Positions 28,801 to 55,690 are shown, counted from the stretch's first letter. The stretch is DNA of 56,223 nt from a virus (IMGVR_UViG_3300006735_000039:1-56223); one strand, 5' to 3'. Translations and numbers: made by a program. Notes: generated by a model from the sequence alone, not told the origin.

Positions 28801-29140
28801 TGAGTCAGCTTTAAGAAAGAAGGGTATGACTGAGGCTGAGATAGACGACTTTGTTGCGGAAAGAGTAAAGAATACCTACCCCACCTATTCTAGAGTTGGT
28901 AAAGCTGTTGAGTATATTAGAAAGGTTCCTTTCTTGGGCGACTTCCTGTCATTTAAGTACGAGTCTATAAGAACAATGAAGAATAGTATTCTTATTGCAA
29001 AAAGCGATATGATGGACCCAGACCTTAGAGTTGAGGGAGCTAAAAGAATGGCTTCAACTATTGGTTACTTAGGCTTAAAAACTGCTGGGTTTAAACTTGT
29101 TGCAGGTTTTGCTTCTAATGCTTTCTTAGGATTGTTTTGA
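19850..29140 (+). CDS. Giant polyvalent virion cargo protein (zincin-like metallopeptidase motifs, LPD23-like segment, ADP-ribosyltransferase-like domain)
   Basis: 3096 aa. FRAVHDMAGH (~23285), HEMAH (24614), ATGWSQGPDGFWRFEVSD (~25140), HEQQH..GEQEAR (25919), YYHGT..MFFTP..LGYDS (~26420-26820). Frame continues past TGA 29138-29140. Confidence 0.75.
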   Translation: MEELTLLENDKAKLDGIVQQMITNNESEDNIRFVVNDFKSKYGKKKEESLPESIDTSAPLESETPSTESNEMTIEEAKSIAKDEASKGLWGELTDWAVETTNTLGAYYGVSLGGLGSEVALKMLDRESVKQISKASLKSEAERKEKIKAAQKAVEADIMANPESSVEQYDFVIEEIKRLEEEYRNKPYSPSMDKKLEELNAQKNMMAPGAEKVKSASWFKGNVLDATEETAIYQPTGSIEDAKTGEDLGTVKGSEDDVYLATYKKFLEDTNPKSLEEHNEKVNSLKESGSIKLLEDAESKFEIQANNWYNQQINTSLELAKKKKRINSETGAEYTLQDVINESDNLTKNIKNSEKTLLDLDKKIKDKIEKSTSASEAIKSSMQNEFNSEAEKIVSSYEEMAKTATTQEELDNINNRLKSDIAKLEIDITAKYSSRFNDISDEINTLNRQRASTYDKYKDSVDSFNDIIGSDDFVEYKNLTSQYNNVFQNTEEIIKKYPTALAKKQEIEDKQIELDLTRKKRLEGDVGATVKSAWNYINKKGSQYAESLLTLGRTVTAGDDYDFLEKLGDLVEYHLEDNQVQSSSNERALVEKVVLFSDFRLTLDDNGEVIDVRDKDGYKVRNAITSKQVVADFLSIPKDERPKETTEVNDNILFTKFLDTSLDMAALIYGGQFATKSLSALSKFYKFNKIAGLTSVGYVFEHNSLYNEALDAGMSKDDAGKFAMSGAVIIGALENLSPGDAIFDGAIKRKITKEYLEILAKGKATKGDVARVIARNVAVEIPKENIQEFSQTVADRVVKAVANNVLNNNYFDTEIEKEELLESFILTTMSTGSLAAKTQASAQRTSTLESNALYTAAKNKDQDKMFQKLDMMVEDGTIEQDAANSTKELIIEAKDLFSKLPEGKYTPVMESQILELQLLKNKALKEQKSSDAVFGKQYETTINQIDKEINAIINSKSPRLFFNERVENLNVEKAPKLSQLNQQYISGEITQEQYDAKLKSIVNPSKGVVLDAIQSFGEKIGKKLSRKQVIQPISIQKGIAIADAYEAMQSNPNDTEVKQAYDAFKQETKEQFEHFQSLGFKFMPQKEGQAYGTSKEMADDVSDNKTLKFLPTENEFRTGDASVDHPLLEKTGIVIDGYELSFNDMFRAVHDMAGHAAHGFQFGPLGQTNAYLGHAKTYSPLAQRALFSETMGQNSYNNFGSHLRNEDGKIPKKGEAGFVPLSMRPYAPQKAGLLSVELMTDVEMQRRVLDTPFQDLVLNNIDVELDNILAKIENQEDLTEQEIDDAKKYLDQIFDQVINSNITQQGKNIVTQYLELVENTIDNYENIITTKTVTVVETKVGTYAERGAIKKRVSEYSKQVRPARERLVGRIVQVEGLELPEGSVAVLNQDNDGVFIEVVDRETGTRSQRVDLGTNNPNEISIENVEMDEFDRPASAQLKFGDTNMTVVDPTLVMDLAIEKHEEVNPIFEQDVETIQYGIETVTEQEISERIEKTDEEVRIEEENKTDIEKIKEQIEMSALSNKSLKGKGLQHLVDRLQNAFPNAPIAIINSKQAESILPGTNAGKSKGFAYGGKVYIVGDNVTMDTPIHEMAHIFNSYAKKYEPKLYKKGLELVKGTKYEKDVRNNPSYSNLDEEGILEEALAQAIGEKGALLEQGKRKGFQAWLKKLFDIIKSKGIPVNLTLGQYTDFVAGRLTSGETISDITAEELNEIDSNPKLKALFSFVYDNGLDANNEAVVQSRILESLREAKKYVQEGMDAKLIAKATGWSQGPDGFWRFEVSDADLNFNPKVKSDIIDSFELFFARGNEGLLEFSDKISSLFDGNVLAEFYSELKNINVEFSLFEGSGNSKGAVKTIMPRHIVNAAALLDNASLEISDKDRSELVSMIDDFADGIGLDKITNDISVNPLVSSDKYKAMYLSAIFSQEVAEVRALLKQRDSVKDSDAREDVNKYFQIEAEILDIQDEVKKTHPFLENTFDTVTIIPENKAYASAELMMMEAEAATVEERKDVFYNNLFEEIKSTFVHEQQHVAQGLASVSKGGNMEMVSIFDAALREYVADDTRTKEEKYKKTFEAYQNLFGEQEARIVQDRMNMTQEQLNEDVVDFGDIKNSIVVSHAQYILAETSREFETDLFSSSEQVISKVMELGLKQAQDRIKPRFSFAPENPTERKGFNDWFANSQIVNEEGTPQVYYHGTTRVFDNFDMGRTSQLVDAMFFTPDPEFANKYTEPSAVEKVRGDSVLPNIMPAYISIQNPFDYENPSHVKRLVNSLGNVDIELFAISQGIDPSENSRDNIGRIISSNTNNNWGYLEPFGNKIKSLGYDSMYIGERGRKNVAIFDPNQAKSVYSNDYSTTKFSKPTQFDIKKLVSDLVEQGFTKDKILESFSQLGYDLNDVNTAFDSLMNDSIKNNFVKEQEIARQNKLVNANEDVSIWQGITDKLKNAGKYVANLFTPQGQLRKEVYTLIEDKGQNVKAMIANIQFSQRKLNRALKGVVDGSMKMNNPSYAEVIKDVEKALRGQLSFSELTKMYNVEVSEIVESMRNQIDSLSSQLIDSGFTQDDIKLKIIDNLGSYLTRSYALYDDPSFSSKTGPEIREAFAKDPNKSAILNNAINYLRREQSNQIYERLMNFYEGELTRVNQEYQSGQITKEDYESQKSEIVDTLNNKDGKLTEVFENELLNVIDSILNKQEVSFLGVTGALSTKDSNVLKQRKEISPELRALMGEYNDPMYNYANTVLKVFSLIEQQKLLKKLKKVGMNDFIYQPNDPNRPGDAVRIAAESNSALAPLNGMYIDPTVLAEIQDVTSPEQRGLLLQRLFDFVSWTRESKTTLSPMTHMRNVIGNLGFIMMNGHIGFTSPKAGGNSIRTVMYDLNILDSKMAMLLGAKKILTDQHRQETEQLIQKLTALGVVRQNVSVNDIIDLSQNGDFDYYFSKNMDGYQLNENDRLKMMMSKGKKGIDMGRKKSQDLYQAEDDMFKIYAFAMERNRYESALRKKGMTEAEIDDFVAERVKNTYPTYSRVGKAVEYIRKVPFLGDFLSFKYESIRTMKNSILIAKSDMMDPDLRVEGAKRMASTIGYLGLKTAGFKLVAGFASNAFLGLF

Positions 29141-44422: not shown

Positions 44423-45086
44423 AGTTAAATATATTATTAGTGCTTACTGATTCCTTTTTGTTTCCGCCAAAATTGTTAGACTTCCATCTGTTAAGCCTAG
44501 ACTTAGTGCTCCAAGTCTTTTGCTTTTCAAATCTCATCTTAGTGTCGTTGTCTCCGTGCTCAGTCCAGTATTCGTAGAAGCTTTTAAGCATATCTCTACC
44601 GAACTCTTCTACAAAGGGACTAAGTGATTCTCCAAACGCAAGCTTCCTATCTTCAATAGACACAGCTTTTGTTTTCTTGGTTTCTTTTTTAGTCGGACTA
44701 TCCGACTTAGGTTTTGATTTAGGCTTCGACCATCTAGCCTTTGCCGCTCTCTTTGCTCTATCAACATTGCTTCTACTCTTCTCCATCCTCTTAGATAAGC
44801 TTTCGGACCATATGGATTCACCATCAGTAACAAAAAGCTCATACTCCTCGCAGCAAGATTTAATGAAGTGATTCATTTGCTCAACATCAACCATAGCTTT
44901 GGATGAAAGAGCTCTTACATATGATTCTTTTAGTGGTAGAGAACAACTCTTCTGAGACGCTAGAGCTTCACATATAACCCAGAACATACCGTATCCAGAC
45001 ACACCAAATTCATACATCATTGTTTGAATCTTGAAGTCATTGATTGCATTTATGTCGTGAGCAAAATAAGGTTGTACTAAACTCAT
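44412..45086 (-). CDS. Replication initiator (Lin1244/DUF4373-like N-terminal wHTH)
   Basis: YFAHDINA.ND.KI..G..GYGMFW..E.L, WSESL..RM, AAKARW linker, C-terminal FYEYWTE..KMRFE..TW..RL.RW. Upstream of helicase. Confidence 0.75.
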   Translation of the reverse strand: MSLVQPYFAHDINAINDFKIQTMMYEFGVSGYGMFWVICEALASQKSCSLPLKESYVRALSSKAMVDVEQMNHFIKSCCEEYELFVTDGESIWSESLSKRMEKSRSNVDRAKRAAKARWSKPKSKPKSDSPTKKETKKTKAVSIEDRKLAFGESLSPFVEEFGRDMLKSFYEYWTEHGDNDTKMRFEKQKTWSTKSRLNRWKSNNFGGNKKESVSTNNIFNFGN

Positions 45087-45253
45087 TTTTTTTGTTTTAA
45101 AAACGGTATGCCCGTTCTCTGATTAATTATAATTCTTTTATTAGTAGGCAGGTCTATTTCTTTATAGCCTTCTTGAAGTTCTTTTCTGAATATGCGCATT
45201 GGCACTCCAGACTTAGACATCTTTTCTTGAAGTATTAAACCTTTGTATCTCAT
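45083..45253 (-). CDS. Small hypothetical protein (56 aa)
   Basis: MRYKGLILQEKMSKSGVPMRIFRKELQEGYKEIDLPTNKRIIINQRTGIPFLKQKK. Stop overlaps the initiator ATG (ATGA). Confidence 0.5.
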   Translation of the reverse strand: MRYKGLILQEKMSKSGVPMRIFRKELQEGYKEIDLPTNKRIIINQRTGIPFLKQKK

Positions 45254-45256
45254 TTG

Positions 45257-45292
45257 AAAAAAAGAGGGGGTGTCATTACAACACCTCCCTCT
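45257..45292 (-). terminator. Intrinsic terminator/attenuator after SSB
   Basis: On - strand AGAGGGAGGTGT-loop-ACACCCCCTCT followed by a T-run. Confidence 0.65.
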
Positions 45293-45309
45293 AACTAACT
45301 AAAAAACAA

Positions 45310-45591
45310 TTAGAATGGTAAGTCTCCATCGTTACCAGCAGTTGCTGGAGCTGGAGCAGGACCATCACTGAAAACAAACTCTTTACCATTTCCTAAGTAA
45401 ACCTTAGGAGATTTAGCTTCTCTCTCTTCTTTTGTCTGAGAGATTGCAACATAGTGAGTGTTACCAAACTGGTCTTCACCATTTCTGTTTGCACCCACGG
45501 TAAGGTTTAGATACTTACCTTTCTTACCTGCAATGATTTTTGATTTGTCGATTTTGTCTAAGTTAATAGACACATTAATGATTGAACTCAT
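45310..45591 (-). CDS. ssb: Single-stranded DNA-binding protein (putative)
   Basis: 93 aa. GKKGKYLNL, DQFGN, VYLGNGK, acidic DGDLPF C-terminus. Confidence 0.7.
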   Translation of the reverse strand: MSSIINVSINLDKIDKSKIIAGKKGKYLNLTVGANRNGEDQFGNTHYVAISQTKEEREAKSPKVYLGNGKEFVFSDGPAPAPATAGNDGDLPF

Positions 45592-45614
45592 AATAAAAAT
45601 AATTAATTAATTGA

Positions 45615-45947
45615 TTACTGTAATCCTTTTAAAACTCTGTAGTATTCACGGGCAACTACTAAACCCTTTGGTGTAAGATAGTAAGGGAACGCACCGTTGT
45701 TTAACTTGTACCCTTGCTTTCTTTTTACTAATCTTTTTTCTATTAGCTGCGATATGTGTTGTCTGCTTCTATTTATTCCTTTGTCAAACTCTTTGTTAAA
45801 CTTCTGAACACTGAAGACTCCGTAGTGATAACACCATAGAACAACATCTAAGTCTGTCCTTGTTATCTTCTTACTTCTTCTTAGGTGGACTATCGCTTTA
45901 CCATGATGCTTGAGATTGATGAAGTATTTCTTCTTGTTCTCTAGCAT
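45615..45947 (-). CDS. Winged-helix (MarR-like) DNA-binding protein
   Basis: ITRTDLDVV..HISQLIEKRLVKR..YYLTPKG. Confidence 0.6.
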   Translation of the reverse strand: MLENKKKYFINLKHHGKAIVHLRRSKKITRTDLDVVLWCYHYGVFSVQKFNKEFDKGINRSRQHISQLIEKRLVKRKQGYKLNNGAFPYYLTPKGLVVAREYYRVLKGLQ

Positions 45948-46432
45948 TCAAAGTAATTTTTACTACTCTTTAAAAACTGTTTCATTCTAAGAACTTGATG
46001 CTGAGCTTTTTCTTTCTCGCTCTTTTCGTATCTAAACTTCTCAGAAAGAATGGAGTTTCTAATCATAAGCCTATCAACTATGGAGCGGTGACCGAACTCT
46101 GGTTCAGCCAAAGACTTTCCAACATAACAGCAGTCGTTATACTTCTGTCTATAGTTTAGGTCTGTAGAAACATAAGCATCATGCTTCTTTAAATAATGTA
46201 TAGACATACTATGGTCTCTATTAATCATACTACCAATAGACTCAAGGCTCTCGTTTGTTGACTCCCTAGCTATAGCGGTGTATATACACCTAGCGTCAAC
46301 TATAAAAGACTTTCTCTTCCTTGAGACCATATGCTCCTTTGGAACACCTAATGTCTTAGACACCTCATCTAATATAAAGTTAAGGTTGTCTATATTGTTG
46401 ACGTAAGTGTCGTGCTCATCTCTATTTCTCAT
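45941..46432 (-). CDS. DnaA domain IV-like HTH protein
   Basis: SRKRK..VDAR..SLESIG..INRDHSMSIH. Confidence 0.7.
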   Translation of the reverse strand: MRNRDEHDTYVNNIDNLNFILDEVSKTLGVPKEHMVSRKRKSFIVDARCIYTAIARESTNESLESIGSMINRDHSMSIHYLKKHDAYVSTDLNYRQKYNDCCYVGKSLAEPEFGHRSIVDRLMIRNSILSEKFRYEKSEKEKAQHQVLRMKQFLKSSKNYFEC

Positions 46433-46513
46433 TTTGTTTACATTTAAATTTATCTACCCAGGATTGTCTTATGAACATTCCTATAAAAATACCAATGATT
46501 AATGCGGTTAACA

Positions 46514-47257
46514 TTACAGAACGCCCTGTATGTAGTAATCTTCTACATCATTAGATTGCTCAACGAAGTATTCAAAGTACATCTGCAAGAGTCTCTTATA
46601 TTCCTGCCTTCCAGACTCGATGAACTCTGGAGAGCACTCGTAAACAGCCACCCTGTAGGGGGCTTCTTTCTCTACACAAATAAATGTAAAGTTCTCAACA
46701 CCAAAACCATCGCAGTAGAACGCAGCTTGTCTGTTGTATCCGTACTTGTAGCATGAGTTTCTGAAGGAGTGAGGGTCAATGTTGGCTGTTGTTTTAATAT
46801 CTATTATCCCATTAGGATTTAAAACGTCAGCTTTTCCCTTGCATTTTACAAAGGTGTCTCCATCTACCCAGCAGTTTGCTACCTCTTTCAGTCCATCTGC
46901 AATAAGGTCAACAGCATCATCGTTATTAAAGAAGCTGCTAACTACACCCTTGATAGATTCAAAATCTCTTATAGATAATATCGTCTTGTCTGAGTTTTTA
47001 GATTTAAACTCATCCCACTTCTTGCCATACTTCCTACCTTCAAAACAAACTATATCGTTTTCAGAAACTTTCTCTGGTTCTAGTATGTATTGATGAACTA
47101 ACCTGCCAATCTCCAGTGCTGAGGAGCTGTCTCCATCTCCATCATAATACATCTGAAGATGTTGAGGTGACCTGTTGAGGTATCCTAACTGAGAGTTTGT
47201 AACATACTCTCTATCAGCGTAATACTCTTGGTCTGTCTTAAACTTTACTAACTCCAC
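46514..47257 (-). CDS. RecE/DUF3799-like exonuclease
   Basis: GRLVHQYILEP, CKGKADVL, IDIKTT, YGYNRQAAFY, F.FICVEK.APY. Confidence 0.85.
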   Translation of the reverse strand: MELVKFKTDQEYYADREYVTNSQLGYLNRSPQHLQMYYDGDGDSSSALEIGRLVHQYILEPEKVSENDIVCFEGRKYGKKWDEFKSKNSDKTILSIRDFESIKGVVSSFFNNDDAVDLIADGLKEVANCWVDGDTFVKCKGKADVLNPNGIIDIKTTANIDPHSFRNSCYKYGYNRQAAFYCDGFGVENFTFICVEKEAPYRVAVYECSPEFIESGRQEYKRLLQMYFEYFVEQSNDVEDYYIQGVL

Positions 47258-47498
47258 TTTTATCTAACTTTTTTAATGTATTAATCTCATCAACTATAAA
47301 CTCAAACATCTCTTGAGGTTTAAGATTTATTTCTGGAGTGCTTTGACATAAGTCAATGATTTCTTGTACAGTAAACCTGTTTGGTTCAAGTATCTTTTGA
47401 CTAAATGTTTGGTGAGCAATACCTATTTGTCTAGCTTTTGCTGTCTTCCTAACTCCGTGATAACGAAGTATCTTTGGTAATTCACTTATATATTTCAT
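47238..47498 (-). CDS. HTH DNA-binding protein
   Basis: KTAKARQIGIAHQTFSQKI..P..FTVQE, XRE/Cro-like. Confidence 0.6.
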   Translation of the reverse strand: MKYISELPKILRYHGVRKTAKARQIGIAHQTFSQKILEPNRFTVQEIIDLCQSTPEINLKPQEMFEFIVDEINTLKKLDKSGVSKV

Positions 47499-48076
47499 GA
47501 TAACGCTTTATTTAATTTATCTTTCTGTGCTTTTGTCATTGTGTAAGACGACATTCTACTTTTAACAACATCAACCTTACCCTCTTTGATTGCACCCATC
47601 ATAGCTGTCATAACTTCTTGAGTCATCTTTACTTTAGCAGTCGGACTATCCGACTTAGGTTTACTGTTAGAGTTTCCGTGAGTGTTTGTAGCATCAGCAT
47701 CTTTGGTATCATCAATTAAGAACAAGCCATTAAGTGCGTACTTTCTGGCGTAAGAAGATGAAGCTCCGAATGACTGAGCAATATCCATACCCTTTCTGTT
47801 TACATCAATACCAGCTTGTGCTGTTGAAGTAATGTCACTGGCACCATCAGTGATTGTGACTGTTGCCTCAACAAATGGCATACCACAAACCTCCTTGACA
47901 TTATCAATAATAGTCATTGCTAGTCCGCTTGATTTTAATAGTGGTTTAACAGCTTCAAGAATATCCTCTTGATTTCTGTAGGAGTACCTACCAAATTTGT
48001 TGTACTGATTTTTAGGAGCCTTAAGTTCTTGCTGAACTTGCATAAGTTTCCCAATGAATTTTTTGTTTGCTTCCAT
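47495..48076 (-). CDS. erf: ERF-family single-strand annealing protein
   Basis: LKAPKNQYNKFG.Y.YR..EDILEAVKP, AQSFGASSSYARKYALNGLFLIDDTKDAD. Confidence 0.9.
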   Translation of the reverse strand: MEANKKFIGKLMQVQQELKAPKNQYNKFGRYSYRNQEDILEAVKPLLKSSGLAMTIIDNVKEVCGMPFVEATVTITDGASDITSTAQAGIDVNRKGMDIAQSFGASSSYARKYALNGLFLIDDTKDADATNTHGNSNSKPKSDSPTAKVKMTQEVMTAMMGAIKEGKVDVVKSRMSSYTMTKAQKDKLNKALS

Positions 48077-48109
48077 AAAATAAAATTTAACTTGTTTAAT
48101 TTTGCTTTA

Positions 48110-48117
48110 CAAATATA
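48110..48117 (-). promoter_or_regulatory. -7 promoter element for recombination/replication operon
   Basis: TATATTTG on - strand, 33 nt before the ERF ATG. Confidence 0.55.
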
Positions 48118-48337
48118 TAAATATACTTCAATAATAGCATACCCTATGTTTAAAAGTTATTAACAATTAAGATTATCTCATCCCCCTCTGAACCGCAGGC
48201 GACCAAGCCACTTTAATAATAATTAAAAAAATACAGAAGGGGATAAAGACAACCACTCTACTCCTCAAGTAGAGTTGTTCAATGCTATAAGAACGTTTTT
48301 AGGTGCTTACACGCACAGCTTTGTGCACCTCCGTGTG

Positions 48338-48619
48338 TTAATCTTCCCTAAACCCAGCAACTCTGGGTAAAAAATGTTTATCGCTACTCATTAGACCACC
48401 AATGTCATGCTGAAAAGTTTGAGATATTATAGTAGCTACTCCCTTTTCCTTGCAATACTTTTCAAAAGCTATAAAGTCATCAAGGGTTTCTTCATCACAC
48501 TCAGCTAACGCAACCTCAATGTTTTCGTGATAGTTTTTTGAGTAGTATATTCTAGGACAGTACTCGGAAAATAGAACCCTGACCTCGTCAAGTTTCTTTA
48601 TAAATTCTTTTGTAATCAT
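48338..48619 (-). CDS. Hypothetical protein
   Basis: 93 aa ORF. Confidence 0.55.
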   Translation of the reverse strand: MITKEFIKKLDEVRVLFSEYCPRIYYSKNYHENIEVALAECDEETLDDFIAFEKYCKEKGVATIISQTFQHDIGGLMSSDKHFLPRVAGFRED

Positions 48620-48765
48620 AACTTATACTGACCTAATAGTAGTATAGTTGGAACCCACAATCCAACATAGATAGCTGATTGTCTGCCCCCAAAGAACCAC
48701 ATTGATACTGATAGTATTAAACTTGCCATTGCAAGTATTAAGAAAATTTTTCTAGTGTTTAACAT
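48616..48765 (-). CDS. Small 2-TM membrane protein (49 aa)
   Basis: MLNTRKIFLILAMASLILSVSMWFFGGRQSAIYVGLWVPTILLLGQYKL. ATGA overlap with the next gene. Confidence 0.6.
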   Translation of the reverse strand: MLNTRKIFLILAMASLILSVSMWFFGGRQSAIYVGLWVPTILLLGQYKL

Positions 48766-48766
48766 T

Positions 48767-49138
48767 TTATTTATCTTTTAATTTGATTACACCTTCTTCT
48801 ATCAATAGCTTTAGCACCATTTGTGCTGAGTGGTTATGGTCGTAACCCATTACTATATCATCTACATAAATCTCATTACCCTCTAACCTAAAGTTGTAGT
48901 CCTCTAGGTCGTAAGCATCAGGGTTGTTGTCATACAGGTCTTCTAGCCTGTCTTGTATTGTTTCCCACAACTTATCATATTGTTCTGGTGTAATTTTGTT
49001 TGCCATCAGTTTGTCCATAATGTTTTGTAGTTTAGTTTTAACTTTTATTGTTGCTTCTTTTAATTTACCTATCGTATTCTTTTCTAATTTGTCTAGGAGA
49101 TACGCCTCCCTAGTTGATAATTGAAATTTAATTTTCAT
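48767..49138 (-). CDS. Hypothetical protein
   Basis: 123 aa ORF. Confidence 0.55.
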   Translation of the reverse strand: MKIKFQLSTREAYLLDKLEKNTIGKLKEATIKVKTKLQNIMDKLMANKITPEQYDKLWETIQDRLEDLYDNNPDAYDLEDYNFRLEGNEIYVDDIVMGYDHNHSAQMVLKLLIEEGVIKLKDK

Positions 49139-49166
49139 AAGTTTCCTCCTGTTTTATTAATTAATA

Positions 49167-49424
49167 TTATAAGTGTCCTCCATTTTTATCTTCAGATTCA
49201 TATCTCCATTCACTTTCCGCAAGTGTATCTGTCATACCACCATAATCATGTACACCAGAGCCATACTCAAGGTTAGCTTCACCCATGGCTTTATCTATCT
49301 TATCTACATATAAGTTCTCATTGCACACAAGATAATTTTGCAAATCCTTAACATCATTAGGCACTTCTACCTCTACTTCTGCGTACTTGTGGTACACACT
49401 TCTTTGCATAATTTTAACTTTCAT
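49167..49424 (-). CDS. Hypothetical early protein
   Basis: 85 aa ORF, coupled. Confidence 0.55.
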   Translation of the reverse strand: MKVKIMQRSVYHKYAEVEVEVPNDVKDLQNYLVCNENLYVDKIDKAMGEANLEYGSGVHDYGGMTDTLAESEWRYESEDKNGGHL

Positions 49425-49668
49425 AATACTCTGATTTATCGTTAGTTATATCTAATGTATTCTCTAGTAGTGTTTCTACTTCATCATATCTCTCGTTGTA
49501 GAAATCTTGTGCTTCATCAGTAAAAATAAATCTAGTGTGATTATCTAAATCATTTTTAATCTCTCTATATGGCTCGTTAAAAGTTATCTCTGTCATCTGT
49601 GTAGTTATTTCATCAATAAACTCCATCCACTTGTCGTTTGGTATTCTGTGTTTACTCATAATTAACAA
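49414..49668 (-). CDS. Hypothetical early protein
   Basis: 84 aa acidic ORF. True start may be the ATG at 49659. Confidence 0.5.
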   Translation of the reverse strand: MLIMSKHRIPNDKWMEFIDEITTQMTEITFNEPYREIKNDLDNHTRFIFTDEAQDFYNERYDEVETLLENTLDITNDKSEYYES

Positions 49669-49910
49669 TATATTTCGTTAGGCATATTCTGTTGTAGGTC
49701 ATCAATCTTTTTGCAATGCTCTACATACTTCCAACACTCTGATAGAGTTTTGTATGTGTACTCCCAGTCTTTATCAACTTCTGCTTCTTCCATTTCTTCT
49801 GATGCGCCAAGCCATTGGTAGTACATGGTGTCGTTGTAATCTCCTCCAGATTGATTTGTAAAAGCATCTGCAATCTTGTTGTAAACCTCTATACATTTTT
49901 CTCTAGTCAT
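49662..49910 (-). CDS. Hypothetical early protein
   Basis: 82 aa acidic ORF. Confidence 0.55.
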   Translation of the reverse strand: MTREKCIEVYNKIADAFTNQSGGDYNDTMYYQWLGASEEMEEAEVDKDWEYTYKTLSECWKYVEHCKKIDDLQQNMPNEIYC

Positions 49911-49928
49911 AATATTTAATTTAGTTAG

Positions 49929-50162
49929 TTATTTACTGGTCGGATAATCCGACTTATGTTTCCTATCTAATTCATCTCCTAATGCTTTTCTAATCTTTGA
50001 GATTTTACTCCTAAGCATTTTGTTTTCTTTTATTAGTTCGGAGTTATACCCCTCTATTAACTCGGCTACCTCAAGAATCCAAATCTTATGCGTGATAAGT
50101 TTCCAGTTACCTTCATGTATGTAGGACTTTGCCTTTTCTTTTAAGTAATTTATTACATTCAT
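49929..50162 (-). CDS. Hypothetical early protein
   Basis: 77 aa. Contains a GTCGGA palindrome near its 3' end. Confidence 0.5.
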   Translation of the reverse strand: MNVINYLKEKAKSYIHEGNWKLITHKIWILEVAELIEGYNSELIKENKMLRSKISKIRKALGDELDRKHKSDYPTSK

Positions 50163-50178
50163 ATATTTATATATTTAT

Positions 50179-50224
50179 AGCATATGCTAGTAGTATATGC
50201 TTGTAGCATATGCTTGAGCATTAA
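50179..50224 (-). repeat. AGCATATGCT-type palindrome array, copy 2
   Basis: AGCATATGCT (50179), AGTATATGCT (50192), AGCATATGCT (50205), AGCATTAA (50217). Period 12-13 bp. Confidence 0.8.
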
Positions 50225-50436
50225 CCTATTGATTCTGAGATACTTACACCCTTAATATAAACCTCCTCCCTGTGTGGTTTAAACCTTTCTGGTGGTGATG
50301 GTGGGTAGTCAAATCCAAACTGCAACTGAAAGCCGATGTCTGTATTTATTACCTTTGGTATTTTTAAATGTCTTGTTTCTACGTTACCTTCTTCTTCGTA
50401 GAAAACTATCTTCTGTGTTTTTCTTATTCCTCCCAT
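50221..50436 (-). CDS. Hypothetical early protein
   Basis: 71 aa ORF. Confidence 0.5.
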   Translation of the reverse strand: MGGIRKTQKIVFYEEEGNVETRHLKIPKVINTDIGFQLQFGFDYPPSPPERFKPHREEVYIKGVSISESIG

Positions 50437-50438
50437 TT

Positions 50439-50705
50439 TTAATCTATATAAAATTGTACTTCTTTGTGATAAGTGTTTTGCATAGCTTCAATCAACGACC
50501 TTCCGTTAGCTGTGTGAAATCCGTAGCTATGTGTATGCAACGCATCTATTGGTTTGTTTTCTAATAGCAGTTGCATTAGTGCGAATGAGTCGTATTCAAC
50601 CTCATTACTCACATGATTGATAGCTTCAGCTAAAGCTATGCAGTTGTGTCTAGGTTCAGAGTTTAGCTCCTCCCTAATGTAGTTTTCAATTTGTTGTCCA
50701 GTCAT
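50439..50705 (-). CDS. Hypothetical early protein
   Basis: 88 aa ORF. Confidence 0.55.
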   Translation of the reverse strand: MTGQQIENYIREELNSEPRHNCIALAEAINHVSNEVEYDSFALMQLLLENKPIDALHTHSYGFHTANGRSLIEAMQNTYHKEVQFYID

Positions 50706-50738
50706 TTTAGTATTTATTATAGTCGGATAGTCCGACTG

Positions 50739-51338
50739 TTAGTAATTAGTTTTAATCTTTCTAAACCTCTCCCACGTAGAACTTTGCAGTAGTACGGGGC
50801 TAATACCTATCTGATTAGCTGTATACTTGTAGCAGTCCTCCAGAAATCTGTACTGAACTTTGGTTATACCTGCGTAATCTTCTTCTCTAACCCACCTGCG
50901 TAGTGCTACGGATAGAGCGTGTCTATCTATCGTAACTTTGTCTGCTTTGTGTGGGTGTAGGATGTTCTCAAAGAATGATATAATCTTGTTACCCTTCAGT
51001 ATATCTTTGATACATTCCTCGTTACCATCGCACTGAAGTATCTGTTCTGCTTTGGTTTGGAAAGTTTTCATGTGCTTACCATCCCCTGTTTCTAGGAATG
51101 ATATGGCGCATTGCTTGTTATTGTTCCAAGTTTTCATAGGACTTAGTGCTGATATGATGCCACAAGATGATGTGTGTGGTATGTCGTAATCATCTGATAG
51201 CTTCTGCGCAAACTTGTTAGCCTCTGCATACCAATCATATCTGTCGGATTTGTCCGACTGATTGTAGAAGTGAATAATGTTATTCTTAACTTTTGTCCTC
51301 GTTAGAATTTGTCCCTTGAATTGTTGCTTCTTCTTCAT
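50739..51338 (-). CDS. Phage protein with HhH-GPD glycosylase-like motifs
   Basis: WYAEA, GIISALSP...W..N, G.KIISF..NI, VTIDRHA, LQSSTW pattern. Confidence 0.55.
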   Translation of the reverse strand: MKKKQQFKGQILTRTKVKNNIIHFYNQSDKSDRYDWYAEANKFAQKLSDDYDIPHTSSCGIISALSPMKTWNNNKQCAISFLETGDGKHMKTFQTKAEQILQCDGNEECIKDILKGNKIISFFENILHPHKADKVTIDRHALSVALRRWVREEDYAGITKVQYRFLEDCYKYTANQIGISPVLLQSSTWERFRKIKTNY

Positions 51339-51343
51339 AATAA

Positions 51344-51565
51344 TTATATTTCAAAAGGTCTTACCTCTAGTTGTATTCTTATGTATTCATTTCCGTTCTC
51401 ATCTGTATCTATATCTGCTAGTGAGCAATTCCACATACTATTTGATGACAGGTGACGTTGTAGCCACATTGTATCTTGCTCATATATATCATATAGAACC
51501 TCAAGCGCAGGTACTTCAAAGCTACATAAATCATTTCCATTGTAATCTTCTATAAATATCTTCAT
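51344..51565 (-). CDS. Hypothetical early protein
   Basis: 73 aa acidic ORF. Confidence 0.5.
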   Translation of the reverse strand: MKIFIEDYNGNDLCSFEVPALEVLYDIYEQDTMWLQRHLSSNSMWNCSLADIDTDENGNEYIRIQLEVRPFEI

Positions 51566-51576
51566 TACTCTTGTGT

Positions 51577-51864
51577 TTATAATTCATACTTAATTTCTGC
51601 GTATTTTTCACGCTGATTTTCTTCGTATTCGTGTTGCTCTATCATTGAGTAACAGCTATCATCTTCCTCGCATTCAGAACAAATCATACACTCGTCAGCG
51701 TGTTCTTTACACTCTCCACAAATGTCTGTATGTCCCCAAAATCTAGCACCACAACAACTACTTATACCTGCTGGTTCTTGTTCTGCACCACAACAGCTGG
51801 TAACCTCATCAGAAGTCCACCCATCATCTTGAGGGTTGGATAGTTTGTAGTTATCGTATGTCAT
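51577..51864 (-). CDS. Cys-rich (Zn-binding) early protein
   Basis: Duplicated SCCGA, plus CGECKEH and CSEC. Confidence 0.6.
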   Translation of the reverse strand: MTYDNYKLSNPQDDGWTSDEVTSCCGAEQEPAGISSCCGARFWGHTDICGECKEHADECMICSECEEDDSCYSMIEQHEYEENQREKYAEIKYEL

Positions 51865-52099
51865 ATCTATTGCTTGTTGTAGTCGGATGGTCCGACCCGT
51901 TTACTTTTTCTTGAAACAATTCCACTATGGCACTAGCTTGCATTCTAGCGTATGTTTCCTGTTGCGTGTATGTACCTGCTCTTTGTGGGCTTGGTAGCTT
52001 ACAAGTTAAATCGGCTGAATCTTCTTGACTGAAAACGTATGTGTCCTGTCCCATAAGTATTGCCCTAGTAATCTTCTGTGTTAATTCGTACTTATTCAT
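51851..52099 (-). CDS. Hypothetical early protein
   Basis: 82 aa. Contains a GTCGGA palindrome. Confidence 0.5.
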   Translation of the reverse strand: MNKYELTQKITRAILMGQDTYVFSQEDSADLTCKLPSPQRAGTYTQQETYARMQASAIVELFQEKVNGSDHPTTTSNRYDIR

Positions 52100-52101
52100 C
52101 T

Positions 52102-52209
52102 TTAGTGTATAATTAAATTGTAAATAATTAGTCCTACCATTGACACAACACCCACGTATAACACTAGGTATTCTATCAACTCTACCATTGCTTTCTTTTT
52201 ATTTTTCAT
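52102..52209 (-). CDS. Single-TM micropeptide (35 aa)
   Basis: MKNKKKAMVELIEYLVLYVGVVSMVGLIIYNLIIH, translated by hand. Confidence 0.5.
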   Translation of the reverse strand: MKNKKKAMVELIEYLVLYVGVVSMVGLIIYNLIIH

Positions 52210-52258
52210 ATGATTATTGTTTAATATGGTCGGATTGTCCGACCTTGTTTTCCTGATA

Positions 52259-52561
52259 TTAGTGTAATGTAATTTCTACTGTGTAATTATCCGAACTAGA
52301 ATCCATTATCATTGTGTAACTAATCTCGTACCAATCTTGTTCTTCGTTCCACTTGCACTCAAAGTTGTCAATAAAGGTATACATATGAATTGCTTTGATG
52401 CTTTTTATTACCTCGCTGAATGATAGCTTGGAGTTGCGCCCACTCATAAAGCATAACCTCGCGCCATCATCTGTTACTCTTACTGAAAAGAAATCATCTA
52501 GTGTTACTATCGTGTCTTCCAATAACGAACCCAAGTTCTCAAGCTTTTCTAATTTTGTCAT
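52259..52561 (-). CDS. Hypothetical early protein
   Basis: 100 aa. Starts 21 nt after the predicted HHR2 cleavage site. Confidence 0.55.
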   Translation of the reverse strand: MTKLEKLENLGSLLEDTIVTLDDFFSVRVTDDGARLCFMSGRNSKLSFSEVIKSIKAIHMYTFIDNFECKWNEEQDWYEISYTMIMDSSSDNYTVEITLH

Positions 52562-52576
52562 AATAAATTTAGTTTA

Positions 52577-52736
52577 GTTACAGACTAGACAATCACATCT
52601 CTCTTGATGCAGTTGGTAGTATGCCCATCAATACTATCTATTCCTGTACCATCTACGGATAGCTTTACATGGATGCAAGCATAATCTACTGATTGTTATT
52701 GTCTAGTTTCAACCTTTAAGGTCTCATCAGTATAAC
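52577..52736 (-). ncRNA. Type I hammerhead ribozyme HHR2 with long stem III insertion
   Basis: - strand: GUUAUA CUGAUGA GACCU-UAA-AGGUU GAAA CUAGACAAU-[~105 nt]-AUUGUCUAG UC/ UGUAAC. Complete core and three stems. Predicted cut between 52583 and 52582. Confidence 0.85.
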
Positions 52737-52765
52737 TTGTGTATTTTATGGTCGGATTGTCCGAC

Positions 52766-52930
52766 CTATTTGTACTCTGGTGGTATCCTGCCCTCACAAA
52801 AATTATTATCGCATTCATCGGTATCCTCGTTGAGGTACCCCATGCAGTGAGGACACTTGTCGGACATAAATTCCTCTCGCTCTTTTTGATAGGTTTCGTT
52901 TTCGAATTTCTCTAATTCTTGATTTTCCAT
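52766..52930 (-). CDS. Small Zn-ribbon protein (54 aa)
   Basis: MENQELEKFENETYQKEREEFMSDKCPHCMGYLNEDTDECDNNFCEGRIPPEYK, CxxC..CxxxxC. Confidence 0.55.
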   Translation of the reverse strand: MENQELEKFENETYQKEREEFMSDKCPHCMGYLNEDTDECDNNFCEGRIPPEYK

Positions 52931-52942
52931 ATTAATATAAAC

Positions 52943-53056
52943 CTAGTTACAGAATGTATGTAAAGTATATAGTGCGAATATGAATACTGCGCCAGCAATA
53001 ACGCAAGCGCATACAGAATAGATTAAAATCTTTGCTATCGGTAGTATTGTCTTCAT
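52943..53056 (-). CDS. Single-TM micropeptide (37 aa)
   Basis: MKTILPIAKILIYSVCACVIAGAVFIFALYTLHTFCN. The longer 99-aa call runs through the ribozyme and overlaps the upstream gene. Confidence 0.55.
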   Translation of the reverse strand: MKTILPIAKILIYSVCACVIAGAVFIFALYTLHTFCN

Positions 53057-53072
53057 GAGTAATATAATTTTA

Positions 53073-53136
53073 GTTACAGACAAGGAATACTCTGTACTTC
53101 TTCCTTGTTTCGGACTTCCATCCTCATCAGTGTAAC
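53073..53136 (-). ncRNA. Type I hammerhead ribozyme HHR1
   Basis: - strand: GUUACA CUGAUGA GGAU-GGAA-GUCC GAAA CAAGGAA-[13 nt]-UUCCUUG UC/ UGUAAC. Canonical core, GNRA-capped stem II. Predicted cut between 53079 and 53078. Confidence 0.92.
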
Positions 53137-53153
53137 ATGGTCGGATAGTCCGA

Positions 53154-53573
53154 CTACGCCATTTCAGGAGTAAGACACTTTGCAAGTGCCTCCCCAATAA
53201 TAGCGAACTCATCCTTTGTAAGAGTGCAGTCATCCGATTCAACCAGCTTGATGATTTGCTCTAGCGTATCAACCTCCTTAACTTTCGGCTTGTGGTCGGT
53301 GATGTAGTATTCCTTGGTAGCTTTATCTATTACCATCTTTAGTGGTGTACCATCCCATTCCTTGTGGGTAGTTACTTTGCGTATCGTTCTGGTTAGCGTA
53401 TCTACGAATTTGTTGCCTTTAGCTCCAGCTTTAGCGTAGCTTTCAGTAGCCAATTCGCATAGTGATTTGCCATCTTCACCTATCAAGGATTGCTTGATTA
53501 GTTCAGTTACTTTTGCGCCGTTACGAATAGACGATGTGATTGCAGTTTTTAACTGCGATTTGAAATTGCTCAT
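53154..53573 (-). CDS. First early gene, hypothetical protein
   Basis: 139 aa, first ORF downstream of the tandem early promoters. Confidence 0.6.
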   Translation of the reverse strand: MSNFKSQLKTAITSSIRNGAKVTELIKQSLIGEDGKSLCELATESYAKAGAKGNKFVDTLTRTIRKVTTHKEWDGTPLKMVIDKATKEYYITDHKPKVKEVDTLEQIIKLVESDDCTLTKDEFAIIGEALAKCLTPEMA

Positions 53574-53946
53574 TGTATTGAATTTAGTTAGTTAGATAGT
53601 GGAAAGGGTATCGCTCCCTTGTGTATGTTGGTACGACAAGTCGGATAGTCCGACCTCCAACAACGAATAGATTACACCTAGTCATCTAGTCCACCTAGTT
53701 CCTTGCTAATTATAGACCATCTCCATTGGTCTGCTCCCTTGCAGTAAGGTAGCTATCGTTTACACCTATGCCTTAAAACGATAAAAAATTACGGGCATTT
53801 TTTGTACTCGCCAGAGTTCAGCCCTAGTTTCCAACCTAGCGTACCTCTCCCAATGACGTCTTATGTGTTCCAATATACAGTTATCTAGTAATTACTGAGT
53901 CAGATAATGTACTCACTTGCGTGACCTTTTATGTTTTTTGCTGGTG

Positions 53947-53978
53947 CAAAGATAAGACAAATTTTTGAAACTACCAAA
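53947..53978 (-). promoter_or_regulatory. Strong early promoter (Bacteroidota -33/-7)
   Basis: - strand TTTG, 20 nt, TATCTTTG, then CACCAGC. Confidence 0.75.
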
Positions 53979-54164
53979 CATATTTTGAAAAAACTTTCAC
54001 TTTACTCCAGCGTTACTCTAGGCGTTCTCGGTTCTATCCCTACTCCCGTAGGTAGGTACTAACCTAGTGCTGTTTCTAGTGAGTCGGAAAATCCGACCTT
54101 CTCTAGTGGTAATCAAGATGTCAATCTAGTGCAGTCCATGAGGTCGTTCCCTCAATTGCTGGTG

Positions 54165-54195
54165 CAAATATCGGAATTTATTTTTAACTACCAAA
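54165..54195 (-). promoter_or_regulatory. Second, duplicated early promoter
   Basis: - strand TGTTTGGTAGTT..GATATTTGCACCAGC, 19-nt spacer. Shares TGTTTGGTAGTT and TTTGCACCAGC with 53947-53978. Confidence 0.65.
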
Positions 54196-54391
54196 CAAAA
54201 AACGTAAAAAGATTAAAAAAACTTTATAAGTTGTTGAAAGCCAACAAGTTACAAAGGTAGATTTTTTACTGGTATCTAGTGCCGTATCTGGTGAGGGGTG
54301 TATTGTGCCGTCTGTCTGTCTATCTAGGCGTACTCTAGTGGCGTGTAAAGGCATATCTTTTTGCAAAGGTAGTATCTACTAGTTCCATTGT

Positions 54392-54650
54392 TGTGCGTGC
54401 GTGTGCGCGCCCCTATGCGTGTCATGTGCATGCGCCCATCATGTGTGTGCGTGTGTGTACGTGAGCGCAAGCGTGTATGTGCGTGCCTATGTGCGTGCGT
54501 GCATACGTGGGTACACGGGTACAGGTATCGGGTTTCTGTTATGCGTTGTACGTGTGTATATATATATATAATGCCAAATCTCTGTACGTGCCGCCCTTTT
54601 TTACCTACTTACAACATATATATTATATAGTATATATTATATATATATGT
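54392..54650. repeat. Alternating purine-pyrimidine low-complexity tract ((GT/GC)n then (TA)n)
   Basis: GTGCGTGCGTGTGCGCGC..GTGTGTGCGTGTGTGTACGTG..GTGTATATATATATAT..TATATATATGT. Confidence 0.8.
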
Positions 54651-54705
54651 CGCAAAATGCTAAAATGCTACCTAGAAGCCCCGTAACTTATTGACTCATA
54701 GAATC

Positions 54706-54750
54706 TTAATGCTCGAGCATATGCTAATAGCAATGCTACGTGCATATGCT
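54706..54750 (+). repeat. AGCATATGCT-type palindrome array, copy 3
   Basis: TTAATGCTCG-AGCATATGCT-AAT-AGCAATGCT-ACG-TGCATATGCT followed by an AT-rich tract. Confidence 0.8.
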
Positions 54751-54843
54751 ATATATAAATAGATATATGAATCTTATTAACATCTGTCATTTGAGTAGTA
54801 TATTTTATTAATTTTGGAGTATATTAATTTAATACAATTTATT

Positions 54844-55065
54844 ATGTCAAACAAAGTAGACTTCACACAAGCTAAGCCATTAGAGCTAGACAAGAATGCT
54901 GAGATTAAAAAAATGCAAGCTGCCGCTTTGATGCAGAAGCGTGCTGAAAGAAAGGCTTTGCGTATTGACTGCCTACACTTAGTTGTTTCTGGTGGTTATG
55001 CTAAGAACTCTAAGGAAGCTATCAGAGAAGCTAAAGAACTAGTATCTTTCGTTACTAGTGAGTAA
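54844..55065 (+). CDS. Hypothetical protein
   Basis: ORF 54814..55065, more likely ATG at 54844. Confidence 0.55.
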   Translation: MSNKVDFTQAKPLELDKNAEIKKMQAAALMQKRAERKALRIDCLHLVVSGGYAKNSKEAIREAKELVSFVTSE

Positions 55066-55690
55066 TATTATTTTTCTTATTGGCGAGGCTGGTAGCGGTA
55101 AGGATACCGTTGCCAAGCTTCTTGCTAAGGATGGGTATAAGAGAATTGCTTTTGCTGATAAGCTTAAAGAAGAATACTACTCTGACTTAGGAATAACTTA
55201 CTGTGCTGAAGAGGAAGATAGAGAGTTTAAGGAAAAGCATAGACAAGGCTTGATTGATTACGGTGAGGCTAAGAGAATATCTAAGGGTCTAAACTACTGG
55301 ATTAATAAAGCCTTTGATGATTACTGGAATGAGGGTCTATTTGTTTTAAAAGATAGCACACCTAACTTAGTAGTTACAGATGTTAGGAGATGTAAAGAGG
55401 TAGAATTTGTTTTATCTATGAAGCTTTTTTCTAATGCTAACGTATTCTTTTACCATGTTGATAGGTTGGTTTACGATAATGACGAGCTAACTATGAAGGC
55501 TTTAAGAAGGGCGGTAAAGACTAGGGGGTTGCTAGATGGTATAATAGATAATAACGGAACCCTTAAAGAACTAAAAGAAGATGTTAGACAAATTAGTAGA
55601 AAGATTGAACGGGAATCTAGACGATTCACAAAGAATAGAACTAATCATCAGATTACTATCCACGATGTACTCGGAGAACTTGGACTTTGA
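55058..55690 (+). CDS. Deoxynucleoside monophosphate kinase-like P-loop kinase
   Basis: GEAGSGKDTVA, IAFADKLKE, R..L..YG, VVTDVR, IDNNGTL. Confidence 0.8.
   Translation: MSNIIFLIGEAGSGKDTVAKLLAKDGYKRIAFADKLKEEYYSDLGITYCAEEEDREFKEKHRQGLIDYGEAKRISKGLNYWINKAFDDYWNEGLFVLKDSTPNLVVTDVRRCKEVEFVLSMKLFSNANVFFYHVDRLVYDNDELTMKALRRAVKTRGLLDGIIDNNGTLKELKEDVRQISRKIERESRRFTKNRTNHQITIHDVLGELGL

Follow-up and report, generated by a model that had tools for sequence, protein, structure and literature searches.

A repeated, sequence-constrained palindrome at gene and domain joints in the early region of a podophage genome

Why does a phage carry the same 15-nt palindrome many times over among its early genes? 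The question is raised by IMGVR_UViG_3300006735_000039 (positions 1-56223), a viral record whose whole length of 56,223 nt was analysed and is called the window here, and by the element GTCGGA-N3-TCCGAC within it. The position of the palindromes, their invariance, their place at cassette borders and their recurrence in another phage group were observed directly. Our preferred answer, to which we give a probability of roughly 40%, is that they are transcribed intercistronic stem-loops, read sequence-specifically, that double as recombination joints. The early regions of marine phages consist of fast-turnover genes of unknown function, whose expression and exchange are poorly understood, and this phage supplies a defined, countable cis element that marks cassette borders under strong sequence constraint.

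An exact scan of the whole window for GTCGGA-N(2-5)-TCCGAC returned exactly 11 matches (hairpins 1 to 11 in Table 1), reproducing every coordinate and every listed centre of a preliminary description of this DNA. The centre has 3 nt in ten copies and 4 nt only at 51243. Dinucleotide shuffling gave a chance expectation of 0.00 copies (maximum 0 in 100 shuffles), and allowing up to two mismatches to the N3 form added no copy in the window, which is therefore free of degenerate versions. The hexamer GTCGGA itself occurs 12 times, 11 of them within the palindromes. The absence of copies from the first 44 kb, judged by eye in the preliminary description, was confirmed by the exact scan of 1-44691, and so were its five copies inside open reading frames (ORFs), which start at 51882, 51243, 49939, 47640 and 44692. 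Purine..pyrimidine flanks had also been claimed; on the minus (coding) strand the 5' neighbour is a purine in 11/11 copies and the 3' neighbour a pyrimidine in 10/11. The claim that U-tracts are lacking holds for the coding strand, where none of the 11 palindromes was flagged as an intrinsic terminator, but not for the plus strand, where weak T-rich tails follow 5/11, a feature that we attribute to the A-rich coding strand. Finally, the density gradient described earlier is real as spacing, but it tracks gene size: nine copies lie amid the small early ORFs, and the larger replication and recombination genes hold two.

All palindromes belong to a minus-strand gene series running from 54 to 39.8 kb. 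It begins with about 18 small ORFs of unknown function, followed by Erf, a PDDEXK exonuclease, a DnaA-domain-IV-like protein and a replication initiator and, further on, by a DnaB-like helicase, a resolvase-like protein, an SbcD-like exonuclease and PhoH. Nine hairpins are located within or just ahead of one early operon of about 5.7-5.8 kb, and two in the replication operon that follows. Full matches to TTTG-N20-TAnnTTTG, which we take to be the Bacteroidetes promoter consensus, occur in this region only at 53978-53947 (minus) and 54790-54816 (plus), with none between hairpins; sigma-70-like matches (54) are no more frequent than in shuffled sequence (mean 56.6). As the hairpins all lie in the minus-strand operon and strong promoter matches occur only at the operon start, they are presumably transcribed.

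Table 1. Coordinates of the palindromes (hairpins), hammerhead-like motifs and transcription signals in the window
Feature	Position	Strand	Remarks
Promoter match TTTG-N20-TAnnTTTG	54790-54816	+	Full match
Near-duplicate of leftward promoter	about 54165-54195	-	~220 nt upstream of the 53947..53978 match
Hairpin 1 (GTCGGA-UUU-UCCGAC)	54083..54097	-	Leader, between two promoter-like repeats; RNA folding free energy -9.1
Promoter match TTTG-N20-TAtcTTTG	53947..53978	-	Bacteroidetes-type; drives early operon
Hairpin 2	53640..53654	-	66 nt ahead of ATG of first early ORF (53154..53573); unchanged in G004
Hairpin 3	53140..53154	-	Overlaps stop codon of ORF 53154..53573
Hammerhead-like ribozyme 1	53073..53136	-	Type I layout: stem I 6 bp, stem II 4 bp, stem III 8 bp
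Hairpin 4	52751..52765	-	Right after stop of ORF 52766..52930; 13 nt before stem I of hammerhead 2
Hammerhead-like ribozyme 2	52576..52737	-	Stem I 7 bp, stem II 5 bp, stem III 10 bp with ~110-nt insert
Hairpin 5	52229..52243	-	19-21 nt ahead of next ATG; within window-specific cassette
Hairpin 6	51882..51896	-	In last codons of ORF 51851..52099; 17 nt ahead of ATG of ORF 51577..51864
Hairpin 7 (4-nt loop)	51243..51258	-	In N-terminal part of DUF7178 gene 50739..51338; kept in L005/L006
Hairpin 8	50722..50736	-	2 nt past DUF7178 stop; 16 nt ahead of next ATG
Hairpin 9	49939..49953	-	In last 8 codons of ORF 49929..50162; 28 nt ahead of next ATG
Terminator-like hairpin, T-rich tail	48255..48275	-	Likely end of small-ORF early operon
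Hairpin 10	47640..47654	-	In Erf gene, linker after ERF domain; encodes ..KPKSDSPT..
Terminator-like hairpin, T tail	45269-45285	-	Second terminator-like site
Hairpin 11	44692..44706	-	In replication-initiator gene, joint of N- and C-terminal domains; encodes KPKSDSPT

Predicted RNA folding gave the expected hairpin for 11/11 copies, with free energies of -7.8 to -11.6 kcal/mol. Most of the hairpins either precede a start codon by 13-28 nt or mark a joint of genes or domains: counted to the ATG, the distances are 66, 19, 17, 16 and 28 nt, hairpin 10 in Erf stands 13 nt ahead of an in-frame Met, and two further hairpins are parted from the ATG by a hammerhead-like motif alone. Hairpins 6 and 9 sit in the last codons of the upstream gene and keep the usual spacing to the next ATG, which ties them to the downstream start rather than to 3' end formation; together with the lack of a coding-strand U-tract, this spacing argues against a role in termination. 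Hairpins 10 and 11 share a 24-nt identical block that encodes the same peptide, and both sites are Lys/Ser/Pro-rich interdomain linkers. The C-terminal domain of the replication initiator (residues ~133-224) stands alone in many other phage contigs, so that hairpin 11 appears to mark a domain-shuffling joint.

The arms of the palindrome are under evident constraint. Two close relatives, L005 and L006 (= G004), about 92% identical to the window in DNA, keep 8 and 10 copies, respectively. Over eight clear orthologous hairpins, 0/96 arm positions have changed, compared with 4/25 in the loops and 62/640 in the 40-nt flanks (P = 5.6e-5 for unchanged arms at the flank rate), which bears out the earlier description of fixed arms around a variable centre. 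The only arm change seen is in the ortholog of hairpin 1 in L005/L006, GTCGGA-CTTG-TCCGAT, where pairing is kept through G.U on the coding strand only. As to the loops, that of hairpin 6 is CCA in the window and CUA in the relative, and that of hairpin 9 is UUA in the window and its reverse complement UAA in the relative, an inversion. A similar loop inversion (UUG/CAA) amid constant flanks is found in L100, another contig that carries the palindrome.

The palindrome also recurs outside this lineage. When IMG/VR was scanned for the core together with two bases of the loop, at least 119 stretches matched, of which at least ten have two or more copies and at least six have three to five, whereas the reversed palindrome used as a control gave 120 stretches and 0 with two copies. 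Eight multi-copy loci (G+C content 0.40-0.47) share protein families with one another and almost none with the window. The most complete such record, G001 (48.4 kb), has a terminase 79% identical to that of Roseobacter phage CRP-2, of the HMO-2011 type, and its five copies are all confined to 3.5 kb at the start of its leftward operon. Cultured members of the HMO-2011 type infect Roseobacter and SAR116 hosts. Among the HMO-type contigs, the hairpins stand between small ORFs, with a sigma-70-type promoter and U-tract terminators nearby; 19/26 copies are 2-38 nt ahead of an ORF start and are closely followed by a GGAG ribosome site, and the centre has 3 nt in all 28 copies seen. Such GGAG-type sites, judged by eye, are absent from the window, and the hosts therefore probably belong to different phyla. 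By terminase (at most 40% identity), the closest cultured phages to the window infect the Flavobacteriia Flavobacterium, Cellulophaga, Tenacibaculum and Maribacter. Between the window and the HMO-type contigs the palindromes share the 6+6 core alone, the flanking extensions being specific to each sub-lineage, and no other DNA similarity between them was found.

The distribution is patchy. No copy is present in phages CRP-2, CRP-9, Maribacter phage Panino, Lentibacter phage ICBM1, SIO1 or Celeribacter phage P12053L, nor among 35 distant relatives of the replication initiator (0/35). The terminase relative G005 (40.6 kb, 67% complete), whose early region may be missing, has neither a copy nor another repeated palindrome with 6-bp arms. 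In sampled host-class genomes the copies are scattered, with a maximum of three per genome in 201 Bacteroidia and five in 121 Alphaproteobacteria, counts similar to those of the reversed-pattern control, and 120/120 stretches from genome contigs are single-copy. A host element of the repetitive extragenic palindromic type was considered and dropped, as no many-copy genome appeared among these 322 samples.

Indels between close relatives are bounded by hairpins, and gene cassettes are gained and lost there. Hairpin 4 forms the left border of a cassette that differs among relatives: from its last base onward, L005 has 93 unrelated nt in place of 539 nt of the window, a cassette that comprises hammerhead 2, hairpin 5 and an ORF of 100 aa. 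At the position of hairpin 8, L005 carries an additional gene that has a hairpin on each side and about 45 nt of flank in duplicate. Sequencing runs were compared as contigs; a DNA contig of run X3 lacks 52769-52948, a gap that opens 3 nt from hairpin 4. Run X20, the only one of RNA, yielded, among its contigs, only pieces 88-95% similar to the window. In one DNA contig of run X2, hairpin 2 (53654) is joined in inverted sense to the flank of hairpin 11 (44692), which may represent an inversion between two palindrome copies or a chimera of amplification or assembly. Since every joint carries the same 15-45 nt, the joints could themselves serve as points of recombination.

These observations might be seen as all that there is to explain, the palindromes being selfish or neutral junction repeats that are homogenised by gene conversion and persist through cassette-shuffling recombination, in the manner of the promoter-early stem-loops of T4-type phages, with no regulatory role. 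The gain and loss of cassettes at hairpins with ~45-nt duplicated flanks in L005, the inverted loops (window against relative, and L100), the copies at the Erf and initiator domain joints with the same peptide in their 24-nt identical block, the X2 contig and the patchy occurrence among relatives would all fit. But an identical 12 nt in phages with which the window has no other DNA in common lies beyond the reach of gene conversion within a genome, the 6-bp arms stay conserved even though the bases directly beside them vary by lineage, and the X2 joint could be a chimera. We consider an origin as mere junction repeats quite unlikely.

RNA processing at the early joints is suggested by a second kind of element, as two joints carry predicted self-cleaving-ribozyme motifs. 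We searched by pattern for complete hammerheads, which have CUGANGA and GAAA as cores, three stems, and an NUH triplet for cleavage placed between stems III and I; the window has two hammerhead-like loci against 0.05 per shuffled genome, and both conform to the type I pattern in every element. They lie on the coding strand of the early operon, each directly behind a hairpin, with the next ATG about 22 nt further on. The first, with the motifs CUGAUGA, GAAA and GUC, has a predicted cleavage site after 53079, and hairpin 3 stands 3 nt before its stem I and 9 nt before its CUGAUGA core. For the second, cleavage is predicted after 52583, and its three-way junction is the minimum-free-energy fold of 52572-52770 (z -3.65). 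Hammerhead 1 is kept in L005/L006 with a stem-preserving change of U.G to C-G in stem II; hammerhead 2 is absent there, the entire cassette having been replaced. No match to the hammerheads was found in Rfam at the gathering score or at E up to 10, nor with RF00163 scored directly, and no Rfam family covers either kind of element, in the window as in 10 related loci. The HMO-type contigs showed no hammerhead-like motif. The paired motifs make RNA processing directly testable.

Two side observations concern the hammerheads. The predicted downstream RNA of each begins with UGUAACUAAA, about 22 nt ahead of the ATG. When 53062-53160 is folded at minimum energy, the partner of the 5' arm of hairpin 3 is not its own 3' arm but GUCCGAA in stem II and the core of hammerhead 1; this modelled pairing (53135-53100, minus strand) may couple hairpin formation to ribozyme activity, or may be a coincidence.

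A transcribed stem-loop is favoured by where the hairpins stand relative to start codons, by transcription from one promoter upstream, by the hammerhead-like motifs that share their joints and by the single arm change, which keeps pairing through a wobble. According to this reading, host RNA polymerase would transcribe the palindromes in one long early transcript as 6-7 bp triloop stem-loops that mark the joints between cistrons or gene cassettes. A sequence-specific factor would read the stem and cut, protect or insulate the mRNA just 5' of the next start codon, the same role that the two hammerheads may have at two joints, and the joints would double as recombination points at which early-gene cassettes and protein domains are swapped. 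That RNA is the form which is read, and what the reading brings about, we infer.

Several points weigh against such stem-loops. Only about 7 of the ~18 early joints, as counted by eye from the ORF list, bear a hairpin. Invariant arms with a free centre of fixed length are the classic signature of a dimer on double-stranded DNA (dsDNA). L039 and L100 have one copy upstream of the first promoter, which may lie outside that transcript. Moreover, the wobble pairs made by the lineage-specific flank extensions are on the coding strand in L039 and on the opposite strand in L100, so that there is no consistent strand signal, and the G.U argument is a single event. Lastly, no compensatory arm change occurs over two unrelated lineages; a reader of the sequence, and not of the fold alone, is therefore required, and none was found.

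The main rival takes up the signature just named. The preliminary description had proposed a dimeric dsDNA-binding protein, and the palindromes could be operators for such a protein that blocks elongation or silences the early operon in the manner of stoperators. The invariant arms and free centre (3 bp in ten of the 11 window copies and in all 28 HMO-type copies) and the symmetric preference for R..Y flanks agree with that proposal, and copies inside ORFs or upstream of a promoter would be equally useful to a DNA binder. Stoperators, too, occupy short intergenic spaces across a phage genome (PMC9283540). In addition, two high-GC viral contigs, L171 (2860-3380) and L113 (6111-6159), have two palindromes each beside homologous XRE helix-turn-helix (HTH) genes; in L171 a TTGACA lies 6 nt from each palindrome, and the pair, on either side of the HTH gene, points outward. 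The palindrome may thus serve as a dsDNA operator elsewhere.

Other parts of the dimeric-binder proposal did not stand. The sites are at cistron joints and not at promoters, and the 4-nt-centre copy is kept in relatives. Fifty window ORFs were compared with Pfam and include no HTH, ribbon-helix-helix or repressor-like regulator, although small or novel binders could escape such a comparison; the sole HTH match is DnaA domain-IV-like (45941..46432). Homologs of the L171/L113 regulators were found neither in the window or HMO-type ORFs, even at E 10, nor in one genome per bacterial species. No nucleic-acid-binding signature was detected in the three products that had been put forward as binders, 53154..53573, 47238..47498 and 45615..45947. 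The last two have no Pfam match, 45615..45947 showing only two marginal PHROG matches (E 0.008-0.01). The first is an orphan with close homologs only, without a Pfam or PHROG match; its AlphaFold2 (AF2) model (predicted local distance difference test, pLDDT, 74.8) consists of four helices, a beta hairpin and two more helices. Foldseek returned no significant match for it or for HMO family A2 (AF2 pLDDT 73.4), and its best VIA-align Z of 6.3 is to a generic helical bundle.

No candidate reader common to the window and the HMO-type lineage was found. A 98-aa basic protein is the only protein common to all carriers, and was rejected as a reader since it is also present in the hairpin-free G005. 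DUF7178 is shared with one contig only; its profile comparison with the ~200-aa family adjoining the HMO-type hairpins was not significant, and five cultured phages with genes of these two kinds have 0 copies, which indicates no association between gene and hairpin and led us to discard both as readers. Furthermore, the promoter regions bear a different tandem palindrome, AGCATATGCT. Taken with both sides of the evidence, a dsDNA operator is possible but doubtful here.

The AGCATATGCT palindromes stand at ~54700-54770, in the divergent promoter region, and, inverted, at ~50165-50220 before ORF 49929..50162. Each block has two exact and one or two degenerate copies, and the two blocks are about 79% alike through L005. 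They resemble classical operator arrays and may be the real transcriptional control sites of this phage.

Hairpin promoters like those of phage N4, recognised here by an RNA polymerase of the phage that escaped notice, had been offered earlier as another alternative. N4 early promoters have a stem of 5-7 bp and a 3-nt loop with a conserved loop base, and number three. The 6-7 bp stems and 3-nt loops of the window match them in size, as does their location ahead of early genes, with hairpins 13-32 nt ahead of starts; in L039 a hairpin comes after two terminators with U-tracts, and no obvious sigma-70 promoter separates it from the next gene. Eleven copies instead of three, and a loop centre that is conserved on neither strand, set the window apart from N4. 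The enzyme itself did not emerge: the 3096-aa protein shows only ART-PolyVal, LPD23 and unnamed PHROGs and the 1488-aa protein only a virion structural PHROG, with no RNA polymerase domain in either, although a very divergent polymerase could be hidden in their large unannotated stretches. The two-barrel polymerase motif (D-x-D-G/I-D type) is absent from the ORFs of at least 300 aa in the window and G001-G004, save for one match at the C-terminus of a portal protein, and no large protein is common to both lineages. Promoter hairpins are very improbable.

The lack of a shared phage reader, the patchy distribution and the identity across phyla suggest a third-party reader, such as a mobile defence protein of the host. 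One form of this idea is that the palindromes are early RNA decoys that titrate such a protein, for example an endoribonuclease of the Cas6 type, as do Racrs (solitary repeat units), which are intergenic repeat mimics in phage genomes whose stem sequence is read by a host protein (PMC10651486). Decoys would account for one and the same stem in phages of hosts with different translation signals, and they fit the absence of a phage-encoded reader, the patchiness, the early expression and the multiple copies. Racr stem-loops are bound by Cas6f, the nucleotides at the stem base being essential (PMC10651486). Like Racrs, the window elements are intergenic phage hairpins in which the stem sequence matters, but Racrs are usually solitary and behind their own promoter, in contrast to 11 copies inside an operon. 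The conserved part has just 15 nt, short of a full repeat. No clustered regularly interspaced short palindromic repeat (CRISPR) array is built on the palindrome in the 322 sampled genomes (at most five scattered copies per genome), and no repeat-spacer array, nor any matching CRISPR repeat, was recognised in the 24 inspected of 71 metagenome stretches with two copies. A decoy is distinctly improbable on these grounds.

Those 71 stretches (L488-L558), of unassigned origin, contain at least two copies each, at spacings of 40-68 nt. Tandem repeats, with periods of 33/20, 34, 41 and 82 nt, and simple arrays of the GACAGTC type make up many of them, and hairpins of the GGGTCGGAAGTTCCGACCC type recur in several metagenome contigs.

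A more general form of the idea, unlikely as well, is a portable recognition tag: a 12-nt stem on which phages of different phyla of hosts converged, or which they exchanged, and which is arrayed in the first-expressed genes as a decoy or hijack signal for a reader that neither phage lineage encodes, for example a horizontally mobile host protein of defence or RNA processing. The identity of the reader would reveal a new kind of RNA processing or translational control, a repressor system of the roadblock type among lytic marine phages, or a novel anti-defence decoy.

The stem-loop reading can also be set beside systems already described. The promoter-early stem-loops (PeSLs) of T4-type phages combine a strong sigma-70-like promoter with a transcription-terminating stem-loop, and recombination between copies explains insertions, deletions and replacements among close relatives (PMC2839356, PMC4122927). 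Like PeSLs, the window elements are short conserved stem-loop cassettes between small non-essential early genes, and the indels between the window and L005/L006 begin at hairpins, which under every reading are also sites of early-cassette exchange; unlike them, they come with no intervening promoter match and no coding-strand U-tract, and their 12-nt core recurs in an unrelated phage group. The stoperators of Cluster A mycobacteriophages likewise place many copies of one short site over operons and in short intergenic spaces; they are asymmetric and bound by a monomeric phage-encoded immunity repressor (PMC9283540), whereas the window site is a perfect palindrome for which no repressor was found.

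The early RNase III sites of T7 and the RegB targets of T4 are intercistronic cis elements of early polycistronic mRNA that is cut or stabilised there, as the window hairpins may be. RNase III needs duplexes longer than 6-7 bp and RegB cuts the tetranucleotide GGAG; neither uses one invariant 15-nt palindrome. The element is real, strongly non-random and constrained, and by the features tested it is neither a PeSL, a stoperator nor an intercistronic processing site of these kinds, though related to them in logic. No paper describing the palindrome was found among the matches listed by a literature search, in which the letters of the motif gave only primer-type matches; the solitary-repeat-unit lists of PMC10651486 might include this phage group.

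Around hairpin 1, the sequence 54060-54560 is non-coding and has repeated ACTAG(A/G) words; 54400-54560 is a CACGCACAC-rich tract whose only Rfam matches are chance-level microRNAs. The word ACTAGAAAC is present behind hairpin 1 and also behind a hairpin of an unrelated contig, L065. The near-duplicate of the leftward promoter is ~98% conserved over ~60 nt in L005/L006, with one A/T difference, and the sequence downstream diverges. As a whole, the window is the record of a podophage, 91% complete (CheckV) and linear without end repeats. Its plus strand from 3 to 39 kb encodes the terminase, the portal, a crAss/SU10-like capsid protein, the 1488-aa structural protein and the 3096-aa polyvalent virion protein (19850-29140, plus), which combines ART-PolyVal (ADP-ribosyltransferase) and LPD23 domains and is unannotated over most of its length. 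Adjoining the early region on the plus strand, 28-540 encodes a 170-aa protein with a Cpn10 (GroES-like) domain and 55058-55690 a P-loop protein resembling deoxynucleotide monophosphate kinases.

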